64,000 nt of DNA from positions 32,001 to 96,000 of the forward strand of contig JBEIPA010000018.1 in assembly GCA_040377305.1 (NCBI GenBank), written 5' to 3'. Made by a program: the position numbers and the translations under genes. The notes beneath the pieces were generated by a model. That model ran no database searches, was not told the DNA's origin, and saw only the letters and a list, made by a program, of their open reading frames with translations. Origin of the DNA: Flavobacteriales bacterium. GTDB lineage: Bacteria > Bacteroidota > Bacteroidia > Palsa-965. Of this stretch, positions 42,026-47,383 are shown piece after piece. Each line of letters starts with the position of its first letter. The stretch's first letter is position 1.

Positions 42026-42211
42026 GTTCCTTGAATTAATGGGACTGCGAAGATAACGATTAGGGGGCGATTCCGAATTCAGAAATTCCGTGATTCCGCT
42101 ATTAAAGCCCGTCGAAACACGGAATTACGGAATTTCGAAATCACGGAATTGTGGTTTTAAACCTTTGGAGCGGTTAGACGTCATAAGTACAATTTGCCTA
42201 ACATTCGATCT

Positions 42212-43060
42212 ATGAAAAAGATACTACTCACCCTCTCAATCGCGACTCTCGGATTCGCTCCGTTAAGCGCACAAGACACAGACTCAACAGGCCTTCCCGG
42301 CGATAATTTCGATCTGCAAGGCGTACTTGAACTTTTTAAAAACGCGGAATCACTGGAAGCATTTGAAAAGGCGCTCAATTCGGAATCGAATGAAGTCAAC
42401 AATCTCGACGTTGATGAAGACGGACAGGTTGATTACGTGAAAGTAATTGATCATGCCGACAGCGGATCGCATGCAATCACATTGCGGGTTGATGTGAACG
42501 ACAAAGAATCCCAGGACATTGCTGTCATTGAAATTGACAAAACCGGTGATGAAACTGCGGAGCTCCAGATTGTTGGTGACGAAGAAATGTATGGCAAAGA
42601 TTTCATCGTCGAGCCCGAAGATGAAGTTGCGAATACACAAGACGGTAAATTCACATCCGGATTTGCCCCAGCGGTTGTCATTGTCAATGTGTGGGGATGG
42701 AGACCAATACGGCACATCTACGCCCCGACGTACGTTGTATGGGTTTCTCCCTGGAGATACAGAGTTTATCCTCCATACTGGAAACCATGGCGACCAGTTG
42801 CATGGCGGGTACACCATGCACGTGTAGTTCGCTATCATCATCATTGCCGGGTTGTTCACGTGCATCGTGTTCACCGCGCACACCGAATTGCACATCGTCA
42901 TCACGCAGGATCACCTCATTATCATCAGCGAAATGCGGCGCGAAGAAATAACGGAAACGTTCAGCGGAACAATGGTGGTGGAAATCGCAACAACGGAAAT
43001 CACCAGGGTGGAAAAAGAAATGGTGGCGGCGGTAAACGCGGTGGTGGTCGTCACAGATAG
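42212..43060 (+). CDS. Secreted hypothetical protein: acidic DxDxDG domain, aromatic/Pro-rich segment, His/Arg-rich tail
   Basis: Signal peptide; NNLDVDEDGQVDY; VHHARVVRYHHHCRVVHVHRVHRAH. Confidence 0.8.
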   Translation: MKKILLTLSIATLGFAPLSAQDTDSTGLPGDNFDLQGVLELFKNAESLEAFEKALNSESNEVNNLDVDEDGQVDYVKVIDHADSGSHAITLRVDVNDKESQDIAVIEIDKTGDETAELQIVGDEEMYGKDFIVEPEDEVANTQDGKFTSGFAPAVVIVNVWGWRPIRHIYAPTYVVWVSPWRYRVYPPYWKPWRPVAWRVHHARVVRYHHHCRVVHVHRVHRAHRIAHRHHAGSPHYHQRNAARRNNGNVQRNNGGGNRNNGNHQGGKRNGGGGKRGGGRHR

Positions 43061-43145: not shown

Positions 43146-43276
43146 CATGCGTCGATAGATAGGGTCGATCAAACTGTGCCTCCATTCGAACTAACGAATA
43201 ACGCTGTTGCTTTTCTGCACCTCACGTTAAAGAGTATAGGTTGCACCGCTGTGCTCTAAAAAAACCTATACTACCC

Positions 43277-44356
43277 ATGAATAAATTTGCAAAATATTAT
43301 CTCCCTGGATTCCTGATTACCGGACTCTTCTTCGGAATGTGTACTTCTGCTGAAGACAAAGAATCCAAAACAGGAAAAGCAGGTGATCAGTTCGATCTGT
43401 TTGCCGTTATGGCCCTCTTTGAAAAATCTTCATCGCCTGAGGATTTTGAAACAGCTATCAATACAAAGTCGAATGGTGTAAATAATCTTGATCTGAATGA
43501 AGATGGACAGACGGATTACATCAAAGTAACTGATAAGAAGATTGATGAGAGTTCACACTGTTTCATTCTGCAGATAGATATTGCTGATGGTAGTACGCAA
43601 GATGTAGCCACTATTGAAATGCAGAAGGTTGCCGATGGTGAAGCGAATGTGCAGCTCATTGGTGATCCTGAATTGTATGGATCTGATTACATCGTTGAGC
43701 CAGCTTCGGAGGTAGCAGCCGCAGGTTTTGTAGTTGCAACTACGACAGCCGTGAATGTTTGGTCATGGCCTTATGTGACTCACGTTTACTCACCAGCGTA
43801 TGTCGTTTATGAATCGCCATACCGCTACGAATACTATCCCGTTTGGTATCAGCCTTGGCCTGTAGTTGCGTATGACGTTTACTATCCTACTATTTCTGTG
43901 CATCGGGTGAAGTACGAATACTCAGATGGATATCGCTTTGTTCACGTACATGAAAACTATCATAGCAATTACCGCGTTACCACGAAGTTTAAATACAAAG
44001 AGAAGGACTATGGCAATGGAAAATCCAATGGCAATGTTGTGGTATTCAAAAACAAGAATGATGGTAGTGGCAACAACGGGAATGGCAAAGACAATTCTTC
44101 TGGTAGTAACAACTCCGATGGAAAAGGAAACGGAAATGGCAAAGGAAACGAGAACGGAAATGATAAAGGAAATGGAAATGATAAAGGAAATGGCAATGAG
44201 AATAAATCCGACGACGATTCGAAAGGGAACGATGGAAAATCCAATCAGAAAAACGATGCGAATGCAGGTGAAGGAAATTCCGGTTCGAAGGGCAAAGGAG
44301 ATAATTCACAACCCAAAGATGGTGGTGGAAAGAATGGTGGAGGAAAACCCAAGTAG
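43277..44356 (+). CDS. Paralog of 42212-43060 with a G/N/K/D low-complexity tail; possible lipoprotein
   Basis: GDQFDL..LFEK..NNLDLNEDGQTDYIKV shared with the upstream gene; FGMC. Confidence 0.8.
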   Translation: MNKFAKYYLPGFLITGLFFGMCTSAEDKESKTGKAGDQFDLFAVMALFEKSSSPEDFETAINTKSNGVNNLDLNEDGQTDYIKVTDKKIDESSHCFILQIDIADGSTQDVATIEMQKVADGEANVQLIGDPELYGSDYIVEPASEVAAAGFVVATTTAVNVWSWPYVTHVYSPAYVVYESPYRYEYYPVWYQPWPVVAYDVYYPTISVHRVKYEYSDGYRFVHVHENYHSNYRVTTKFKYKEKDYGNGKSNGNVVVFKNKNDGSGNNGNGKDNSSGSNNSDGKGNGNGKGNENGNDKGNGNDKGNGNENKSDDDSKGNDGKSNQKNDANAGEGNSGSKGKGDNSQPKDGGGKNGGGKPK

Positions 44357-44696: not shown

Positions 44697-44896
44697 AAAT
44701 GGAACGCGGATTTTGATGTCCGTTGTTTTCTTTTCTCTCGCTTGGATCACCGCGGTAAATACGAAGAGTCTGAATTCGATTATATGAGATAAACTTAAGC
44801 GCATCTCAGAAAATCCAAATTCACGCTGTTGATGATTTGTAGAATGATCCGAAGGAAACGCTCACAAGCCTCGTGCATAAAAATCCGCGTCCCTAT
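44697..44896. repeat. ~200-bp inverted-repeat/rod-like element, copy B
   Basis: AAATGGAACGCGGATTTTGATG ... AAAATCCGCGTCCC; shares ATGAGATAAACTYAAGC..ATCTCA core with 16972-17174. Confidence 0.8.
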
Positions 44897-45501
44897 TCTT
44901 CATTCTTCCGCTTATATCCTACGCGTTTCCGATCTCCATCCTTCACTGGTGGCGCCATTAGTCTTCTGATCGCGTCAAACACCACTGCGAACTTCTTATC
45001 GTAGTTGTCTTCCAGTTCATCCAAACGTTTCGAGAGTGTCTTGTTGTTCGCAATAAGCTCTCGCAGGCGCACAAACGCTTTAACGACCTGTATACTGGCA
45101 TGTACAGCCTTCGGTGAGTTAAGTACGCTGGCGAGCATTACAGTGCCATGCTCGGTGAATACATAGGGCATGTAACGACGACCGCCTCGGCCACTTGAGG
45201 TCGCATTTTGCGACTTCAGGTTTTTGTTCTCCTTATTTGAGGTCACAGACTGTGACCTCAAGTCAGCTCCTGAACTTGAGGTCGCAAATTGCGACCTCAA
45301 AGCTTCATGCTCTTTTTCAGTTAACTGAAACATGAAATCCTTTGGAAATCGTGCAAGGTTTCTCTTTACCTGCTCATTCAAACGTTTTGTGTCAACACCG
45401 TACATTCTTGCGAGATCCTCATCCAGCATGACCTGGTGACCGCGGATGGTGTAGATCAAAGAATCGTCTGTCTTGTTAATTAAGTCTTTCGGAGCGTTCA
45501 T
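44893..45501 (-). CDS. ORF6N (KilA-N-like) DNA-binding domain protein with a triplicated LRSQxxTS motif
   Basis: IYTIRGHQVMLDEDLARMYGV..LNEQVKRN..RFPKDFMFQLT..GGRRYMPYVFTEHG..MLASVLNS. Confidence 0.93.
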   Translation of the reverse strand: MNAPKDLINKTDDSLIYTIRGHQVMLDEDLARMYGVDTKRLNEQVKRNLARFPKDFMFQLTEKEHEALRSQFATSSSGADLRSQSVTSNKENKNLKSQNATSSGRGGRRYMPYVFTEHGTVMLASVLNSPKAVHASIQVVKAFVRLRELIANNKTLSKRLDELEDNYDKKFAVVFDAIRRLMAPPVKDGDRKRVGYKRKNEE

Positions 45502-45595: not shown

Positions 45596-47383
45596 CTACA
45601 TCTTCTCCGGCACTTCAACTCCAATCAAGCGCATTCCTTCGCGGATTGTTCTCGATACCGTCATGCACAATGCAATTCTGAAGTTTTTCAGGTTGGCATC
45701 TGCTTCTTTGAGTACATCGCATGCGTCGTAGAACTGGTTGAATGTTCTTGCAACATCGTACGTGTAGTTCGCAACCACTGCAGGAGAATATTCTCTCGCT
45801 GCTTCCTGAATAATCGCAGGAAACGTAGAAAGCAATTTGATGAGATCTTTCTCCTTCGCGTGAATTTCAGCCGGCGCTTCGAATGCAGGAACTGTACTCA
45901 ATTCCGATTTTCTCCAGATGCTTCTGATACGCGCGTGTGTGTACTGAATGAACGGACCTGTGTTCCCTTGAAGATCGATACTTTCTTTCGGGTTGAACAC
46001 CATCGTCTTTTTCGGATCGACTTTCAGAATGAAATATTTTAAAGCCGCCATGCCAACCATGTGTGAGAGATGGTCCTGGTCCTCTTTGCTCATTCCTTCA
46101 ATCAAACCTTTCTCTGCGGCCATCTCCCGCGCTTCTGTCTCCATTTTCTCAATGAGATCATCGGCATCAACAACAGTTCCTTCCCGCGATTTCATTTTTC
46201 CTTCCGGCAGCTCAACCATTCCGTAAGAGAGATGATACAGTCCATCTGCCCATGCATAACCCAGTTTCTTCAATGAAACTTTCAGGGTTTTGAAATGATA
46301 GTCCTGCTCGTTTCCTACTACGTAGATCAGTTTATCAAACGGATACTCTTTGTGACGCTCAACGGCAGTTCCTAAATCCTGCGTGATGTAAACCGAAGTT
46401 CCATCGCTACGCAACAAGACTTTCACATCAAGTTTGGAATCTGTGTTGTCAATAATCACAGCTCCATCATCGCGTTTTTGAAAAACATTTTTCTTCAGTC
46501 CCTCCTCTACAATCTCTTTTCCGAGAATGTAGGTATTCGACTCGTAATACATTTTATCGAAGTCCACATTCAGCTTCGCATACGTTTTCGCAAAACCGTC
46601 GTACACCCAACCGTTCATTTTTTGCCACAGCTCGCGCACTTCAGAATCATTTGCTTCCCATTTACGAAGCATGTTTTGCGCTTCAAGAATCAATGGTGCT
46701 TTTTTCTCTGCATCGTCTTTCCCTATGCCTTGTGATTCGAGTATTTTGATCTCCGCTTTGTAATGCTTATCAAACTCCACGTAATATTTCCCGACAAGCA
46801 TATCACCTTTCATCCCACTCGACTCCGGAGTTTCTCCGTTGCCCCACTTCTGCCACGCCAGCATACTCTTACAAATATGAATCCCGCGATCGTTCACCAG
46901 ATTCACTTTCATCACCTCATTGCCGGCTGCTTTGAAGATTTCCGCGACGGAATACCCAAGCAGAATGTTCCGCATATGACCTAAGTGAAGTGGTTTGTTG
47001 GTGTTCGGTGAGCTATACTCAACCATCACGAATGGTGCTCCCAACACTACATTCTGTCGTCCCCAGGTCTCGTCTTCCTTCAGATGCACGAACGTTTCAA
47101 TCCAGTATTTCGAGTTGATTACGACGTTCAAAAACCCCTTCACCACATTCCACGAAGCAACTTCGGACACATGCTTTTGAAGGTATTCACCAATAATTTG
47201 CCCGGTTTGTTCAGGGGATTTACCTGCCATTTTCACATAAGGAAAAACAACAAGCGTGATATCGCCCTCAAATTGGGGGTTTGTCTTCTGGAAAGTAACG
47301 GATGCCGGTTCAATTGCAGATCCAAACAGTTCTTTCACAGCGCCGGCAACGTGAACCGACAACAACTGTTCTGGTGTATTCAT
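45596..47383 (-). CDS. argS: Arginine--tRNA ligase
   Basis: EYSSPNTNKPLHLGH, KMKSREG, GPFIQYTHAR. Confidence 0.98.
   Translation of the reverse strand: MNTPEQLLSVHVAGAVKELFGSAIEPASVTFQKTNPQFEGDITLVVFPYVKMAGKSPEQTGQIIGEYLQKHVSEVASWNVVKGFLNVVINSKYWIETFVHLKEDETWGRQNVVLGAPFVMVEYSSPNTNKPLHLGHMRNILLGYSVAEIFKAAGNEVMKVNLVNDRGIHICKSMLAWQKWGNGETPESSGMKGDMLVGKYYVEFDKHYKAEIKILESQGIGKDDAEKKAPLILEAQNMLRKWEANDSEVRELWQKMNGWVYDGFAKTYAKLNVDFDKMYYESNTYILGKEIVEEGLKKNVFQKRDDGAVIIDNTDSKLDVKVLLRSDGTSVYITQDLGTAVERHKEYPFDKLIYVVGNEQDYHFKTLKVSLKKLGYAWADGLYHLSYGMVELPEGKMKSREGTVVDADDLIEKMETEAREMAAEKGLIEGMSKEDQDHLSHMVGMAALKYFILKVDPKKTMVFNPKESIDLQGNTGPFIQYTHARIRSIWRKSELSTVPAFEAPAEIHAKEKDLIKLLSTFPAIIQEAAREYSPAVVANYTYDVARTFNQFYDACDVLKEADANLKNFRIALCMTVSRTIREGMRLIGVEVPEKM

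Follow-up and report, generated by a model that had tools for sequence, protein, structure and literature searches.

This locus raises the question why an ORF6N gene carries three palindromes within its own reading frame, and whether it is the peptide, the RNA or the DNA that keeps them symmetrical. The gene lies in a window, i.e., the whole stretch of DNA that was analysed, of 64,000 nucleotides from a Flavobacteriales bacterium. ORF6N is a very common domain in phages and bacteria, whose mechanism is obscure and which is usually labelled an anti-repressor. The features of the locus are, by window position:

45596..47383, minus strand: argS (arginyl-tRNA synthetase), the neighbour upstream, which shows where ORF6N is inserted
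44893..45501, minus strand: ORF6N gene, 202 aa (protein P0001), with a match to PF10543; the start is the ATG common to the orthologues
45361..45390, minus strand: codons of the predicted recognition helix TKRLNEQVKR (P0001 37-46), based on helix 37-46 of the model and on covariation with palindrome bases
45276..45300, no strand: palindrome A, LRSQFATS, 11/11 pairs, first in reading order, predicted own (cognate) site
45262..45275, no strand: 14-bp spacer (S-S-G-A-D)
45237..45261, no strand: palindrome B, LRSQSVTS, 11/11 pairs; half-site ends TCA-CA, the pattern of the sister x..Q helix
45220..45236, no strand: 17-bp spacer (N-K-E-N-K-N)
45195..45219, no strand: palindrome C, LKSQNATS, 9/11 pairs, predicted imperfect own-type site
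45175..45186, minus strand: GGRR wing-tail codons; the tail residues covary with outer half-site bases 2-4

Three palindromes in the reading frame of an ORF6N gene

The three 25-mers lie exactly where an earlier note on this DNA had placed them, with starts 42 and 39 bases apart and thus in frame, and they encode the peptides listed there. As palindromes they are unequal, since A and B are perfect whereas C, which the note had counted as a third full palindrome, pairs at only nine of 11 positions; C has CG at positions 8-9 in both arms, and at positions 5-6 AG in one arm and GG in the other. The double change in copy B, in which a Ser codon goes from TCG to TCA together with Ala to Val, is real as well. 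A search with a degenerate consensus allowing up to 3 mismatches returned exactly A, B and C in the window and nothing in 100 shuffles. The spacer residues NKENKN resemble, as judged by eye, the residues that usually precede the palindrome (EKEYEN), so this spacer may have arisen by duplication and need not be unrelated sequence. The array differs from a CRISPR-like one in that its repeats are not identical and its spacers measure 14 and 17 bp here and 2-17 bp in the G024 orthologue; Rfam gave no repeat family and no other match at the gathering score, the sub-threshold matches being chance hairpin matches. Contigs of other samples (X1-X3) revealed no gain, loss or inversion of palindrome units, and the same three copies are present in two other samples; assembly drops rare variants, however, and X1 may be the source sample. 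X2 differs from the window at 6/718 bases and X3 at 2/311, none of them within the palindromes. The one joint among the contigs (X6) derives from a distant ORF6N gene.

P0001 matches PF10543 with 126.8 bits (curated cut-off 27.8), which places it in the ORF6N family. Apart from a weak Rha match, the Pfam profile search gave nothing else, and in particular no catalytic, HUH transposase or nuclease domain. No RhuM was found in the window genome by a PF13310 profile search, no NCBIfam model matches P0001, and a sequence search for a related solved structure found none. The AlphaFold model (mean pLDDT 72, >90 in the helix region and <50 in loop 73-105) contains a predicted winged-helix domain followed by a long C-terminal helix (129-165, a putative coiled coil); the array codons correspond to the end of helix 61-77 and to loop 73-105. 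Its fold matches, Dachshund, Ski, pSK1 Par, RacA and MerR, are wHTH-like with Z scores of 5.0-6.4 (rmsd 2.2-3.9), all below 8, a range in which a score can reflect a merely common arrangement and is not safe alone. Three runs of homodimer prediction were mutually discordant (0.01, 0.68 and 0.00).

Symmetry of the DNA and its link to the predicted recognition helix

For a family-wide comparison, ORF6N loci were gathered from relatives and from genome, metagenome and viral collections via peptide patterns outside the palindrome or whole-protein searches; the collection was ranked by likeness to P0001, which favours similar loops. A palindrome was called as 11-N3-11 with a CA-NNN-TG core and at least 8/11 pairs. 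Under this rule, 228 of the 244 ORF6N genes with distinct loop DNA carry a palindrome in the loop: one copy is present in 201 genes, two in 19, three in 6, four in 1 and five in 1, i.e., two to five in 27 genes, and 16 have none. This agrees with the earlier expectation that ORF6N genes usually have one such motif. Loci L033-L153, found by DNA pattern, were excluded from this symmetry census and kept in the flank-copy, helix-code, tree, multi-copy and fitting-site counts, and broken or cut genes missed by the regular expression are in no count.

The 195 distinct units have on average 10.1 of 11 positions paired, a mean somewhat inflated by the 8-pair filter, compared to 4.9 upon synonymous recoding of the same peptides with each gene's codon usage. 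At least 10 pairs are reached by 79% of the observed units and by 0.25% of the recoding draws. At positions 1-5 and 8, every one of the four Watson-Crick pair types is found. Moreover, seven family units are read in frame +1 and thereby give a different peptide (VVANCDH type), and 28 further frame +1 genes were found later. Since the palindrome is kept at synonymous sites and read in two frames, it is the symmetry of the DNA and not the peptide that is conserved; a loss of palindromy through synonymous changes, which had been named as the decisive counter-evidence, was looked for across the family, and the outcome did not refute the constraint on the palindrome. The constraint on a DNA or RNA palindrome proposed before therefore holds for its DNA part. 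Mismatches on the sense strand are A-C in 51 and G-T in 28 cases (132 distinct arm pairs), so there is no G-U bias and no sign of an mRNA hairpin. The 3-nt centres had been described as freely varying, but this is not the case across the family, in which 170 of 259 frame-0 units have AAT (88) or ATT (82), i.e., both orientations.

What the DNA symmetry is linked to becomes apparent from covariation with the protein. In a set of 204 single-copy genes, the highest corrected mutual information couples helix residues 42 and 39 to bases 8-9 of the half-site, residue 38 to bases 5-6 and the wing-tail residues to bases 2-5. A helix with R39..E42 is accompanied by CG at positions 8-9 in 147 of 148 half-sites, x..Q by CA in 153 of 158, x..K by TC in 21 of 22, and x..R by C at position 9 in 66 of 70, and K38 goes along with GG at bases 5-6 in 226 of 248. 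Leave-one-out prediction of half-site base 9 was right for 390 of 408. On a FastTree tree built without the helix and loop columns (206 genes), three sets of independent pairs changed the same way in 10, 7 and ~13 cases, the opposite way in none, and showed no change in 1, 2 and 3. With the code fixed beforehand, 55 held-out single-copy genes gave fitting half-sites in 52/56 cases in frame +1 and in 48/54 in frame 0; the shuffled control had a mean of 31% and a maximum of 53%, although related genes are not independent, so that shuffle p-values overstate, and the trees are fast and partly unresolved. As the loop peptide differs between the frames and the code holds nevertheless, the link is to the DNA, and helix-to-loop contacts within the protein are excluded as its cause. 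Dyad symmetry at the DNA level and a site-helix covariation independent of phylogeny and reading frame are both expected of the operator of a helix-turn-helix protein, and among the options raised earlier the intragenic operator is the one that this covariation supports, as a putative operator.

Applied to the window, the helix TKRLNEQV (K38, R39, E42) predicts the half-site GG-T-CG. Palindrome A is therewith likely a perfect own site of P0001, and C would be an imperfect one that fits at positions 8-9 and has two unpaired positions. Judged by the same code, B likely matches the sister x..Q helix type perfectly, and the nearest relatives carry that helix. The change in both arms of B, called compensatory before, is a true paired change; a different helix specificity explains it better than a compensatory mutation that arose by chance.

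A helix-fitting loop site is present in 284 of 324 classifiable genes, and 40 have none at ≥9 pairs. Sixteen of these 40 have a flank site, which fits in 15 genes that span several clades and are not all independent, and 24 have no flank site in the examined stretch; the 25 genes that thus have neither a fitting loop site nor a fitting flank site include some with short flanks. Loci in which the loop palindrome is lost or decayed and a helix-fitting copy lies just upstream or at the stop codon are L022-L026, L530, L534, L542, L547, L251, L263 and L522. In general, 65 of 255 ORF6N loci have copies outside the loop, amounting to 88 sites against ~5 expected from base shuffles. Most of these are found immediately ahead of the start codon or immediately behind the stop codon of ORF6N genes, and they resemble the own gene's site beyond chance (mean distance 4.4 versus 6.0 at 49 loci). 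At one locus, L476 (G260:C17), the loop site does not fit, and the six palindromes in the flanks differ in specificity. Two or three ORF6N genes that differ in helix and site type stand in tandem at G020:C39 (L527), G023:C24 (L020), G011:C265 (L539) and L233.

The genome that contains the window has family-type sites only at its three ORF6N loci, where 12 of its 55 generic CA-N3-TG palindromes reside: three in the window gene, one at the paralogue on contig C9 and eight at that on C15. No family-type site lies upstream of the window gene. The C15 paralogue (G000:C15:115966-116974, L166) has six upstream copies with a period of 56-58 bp and one downstream copy, all non-coding and of an own variant, and its helix TKTLNRAV fits these seven. 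The C9 paralogue (G000:C9:106551-107042) combines an x..Q helix with a single site whose half-site equals that of copy B at positions 4-11 and differs at 1-3; cross-binding of this paralogue to copy B is possible but unsupported.

Helix types appear to have switched often. The 38 closest proteins are split 19/19 by helix class with ~14 changes, and copy number changed ~9 times, both counted on a weakly resolved tree. Where the window gene has A-V-A, close relatives with x..Q helices have V-A-V arrays. All 22 multi-copy genes with DNA available have at least one fitting copy (13.5 when shuffled). Among the 51 copies in multi-copy genes, 18 do not fit the helix and still have a mean of 9.9/11 pairs, so that plain decay of relics does not explain them. 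In the G024 orthologue, both arms of the second copy depart from B at pair 6/20, which indicates that extra copies are also kept symmetrical. The first copy fits the helix in 16 of 22 close relatives, but in 12 of 21 genes of the wider DNA set, where the last copy fits in 17; an order with the newest copy first was considered and is not established by these counts.

Proposed docking on the own gene and its alternatives

Our data directly reveal the symmetry at the DNA level and the helix code; they also reveal that most genes possess a fitting site in cis and that the helix type switches frequently. To account for them, we propose that a dimeric ORF6N protein docks on its own gene, likely limiting its own expression, and that the array holds alternating specificities, a reading to which we give slightly better than even chances. 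Its core, the binding of the own site by P0001, is predicted with good confidence from the code. The predicted recognition helix would read the half-site in the major groove and, by what is known of such proteins, a symmetrical dimer would place one helix on each half-site; such a dimer accounts for the symmetry, and no hairpin is needed. P0001 would bind the perfect site A and, more weakly, C within its own reading frame, and the middle copy B would serve the sister helix type rather than P0001. Extra copies might arise by duplication or by recombination between sister genes and be tolerated in the disordered loop, which would allow the helix to switch specificity while the gene keeps a matching site. 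The purpose of docking is less sure than the binding itself. As there is no upstream site here, self-limitation by a transcription roadblock is the simplest purpose, in which the bound protein would block the elongating RNA polymerase ~200 bp into the gene. ORF6N genes are found among ordinary genes and also within operons, one of them between the genes for the succinate-dehydrogenase flavoprotein and iron-sulphur subunits (L227); a strong roadblock would be polar there, which weighs against a strong one.

A bolder extension, which we consider possible but doubtful, is that ORF6N genes act as reprogrammable, self-addressed units of DNA binding in an arms race over specificity, each with its own target written into its reading frame, and that multi-copy genes keep a selected in-frame panel of addresses for rival alleles. 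Such a panel would be used as decoy, for immunity or for cross-control, and would also be a stepping stone for helix switching between specificities.

Alternatively, the symmetry could be upheld passively by template-switch correction of quasi-palindromes, with no role in binding. This would explain the paired changes and the well-paired non-fitting copies, but it predicts no link to the helix, which is near-deterministic and recurrent on independent branches, nor that a flank copy should fit in genes whose loop site is lost, and we regard it as very improbable. Somewhat less remote, though still improbable, is a single-strand hairpin or REP-like recombination unit that is copied, inverted or exchanged and diversifies the loop, as had been suggested with the recombination site and the expanding repeat-spacer unit. 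Folding of the array is strong on either strand (z = -8.4), copy number ranges from 1 to 5 in the family and is 1, 1, 1, 3 and 4 among the argS orthologues, the centres occur in both orientations, and tandem ORF6N genes and flanking arrays are common. Left unexplained, however, is why bases track distant helix residues in two frames and in the flanks. In addition, the mRNA strand has no G-U bias, the protein has no catalytic domain, the contigs X1-X3, with those of two other samples among them, contain no joints or copy changes, and the genome-wide search found no copy of the palindrome away from the ORF6N loci. The palindrome as a by-product of a conserved peptide has nothing more than the recurring LRSQxATS motif in its favour and is refuted by the excess of pairs over recoded peptides (10.1 versus 4.9), by the different peptide of the 28 held-out frame +1 genes and by the non-coding copies, which leaves it practically no probability.

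The main rival, in our view unlikely but less so than the alternatives above, shares the binding step and differs in its purpose: ORF6N would be an anti-phage or anti-element protein, and the in-gene site a self-mark by which it is neutralised or sequestered, comparable to aba for BstA; additional sites of sister specificity would then confer immunity to rival ORF6N alleles or act as decoys for them. P0001 matches the PADLOC candidate system PDC-S05 (PDLC04869) with 188.6 bits and also PHROG anti-repressor families, which belong to the Bro-N/KilA-N/ORF6N network, and the rapid turnover of specificity, the well-kept non-fitting copies and the requirement that a fitting site lie in cis would suit a conflict system. 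One PDC-S05 member cut phage plating ~1,000-fold, but the available part of that report describes the tested member with a Virulence_RhuM domain and not ORF6N, and mentions no in-gene palindrome (10.1101/2024.09.26.614923). BstA offers a precedent in that its aba elements are short, overlap the own gene, are cognate to each variant and act as DNA; according to the portion of the paper at hand, aba is nevertheless a 63-bp self-immunity element over the start codon with terminal direct repeats and no palindrome (PMC8585504). The ORF6N element is a palindrome of 25 bp located 200-300 bp inside the gene, lacks terminal direct repeats over the gene start and is cognate to the protein variant by covariation only. 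Furthermore, in a scan of 100 of 132 candidate ORFs, only 7 of 35 annotated neighbours can be clearly assigned to mobile elements or defence, and the window gene itself lies between argS and an unannotated gene.

Coming back to docking on the own gene, P0001 would resemble RacA, pSK1 Par and Dachshund/Ski, MerR-like winged-helix binders of palindromes or repeats, in its predicted fold (Z 5.2-6.4) and the long helix that follows, although sequence identity to them is only 6-25%. The sites of these three lie outside the genes of their binders. Sites overlaid on coding sequence are known from the lambda ori iterons in gene O, i.e., in the binder's own gene, and from lac O2, an intragenic auxiliary operator. 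In contrast to these, the predicted ORF6N site recurs throughout a family that spans many phyla and phages; it dictates eight loop residues, is read in two frames and diversifies fast with a readable helix-to-base code and several specificities per gene. REP/RAYT and Rickettsia palindromic elements are similar as short palindromes that flank a lone gene or lie in frame in coding sequence, but the ORF6N sites are not dispersed over the genome, come without a transposase domain and are tied to the helix of the host protein. Hence, a site inside the binder's own gene is not new as such; new are its family-wide, code-bearing nature, the two frames and the two specificities in one loop. A literature search, which most subscription papers lay beyond, found no description linking ORF6N with a coding palindrome, and the available parts of PMC9881135 and PMC10111431 describe none.

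If the docking reading is true, each ORF6N gene names its own DNA target, which a three-residue code predicts; the family would be directly testable and would supply naturally occurring small DNA binders that differ in specificity. Perfect predicted sites for two helix types can coexist in one reading frame, and such a two-type array is relevant to the question how a protein and its site may shift their specificity jointly while avoiding an intermediate that does not bind.

The argS site

The ORF6N gene is inserted 94 bp behind argS on the same strand, with the unannotated gene on its other side. ORF6N lies directly behind argS in 5 of 26 examined genomes of the genus, and one of these 26 has only 80 bases of flank; without the unpublished genome G008, in which the site is empty, the count is 5 of 25. 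The five genes have 3, 4, 1, 1 and 1 palindrome copies, and their helices differ. The 3' end of argS is variable in the genus (L422-L447), with ORF6N in these five genomes and different short repeats or other genes elsewhere.

Just behind the ORF6N gene, an inverted pair of a dispersed REP-like repeat occupies positions 44701-44718 and 44876-44893 of the window. Its 11-base core has 109 matches in the genome, which also contains 10 Y1_Tnp matches that are not linked to the repeat here. Further on, positions 42194-43060 and 43241-44356 encode tandem, apparently paralogous secreted-type proteins that have Gly/Asn/Lys-rich low-complexity tails and are without a Pfam match, and genes similar to this pair follow argS in several relatives.
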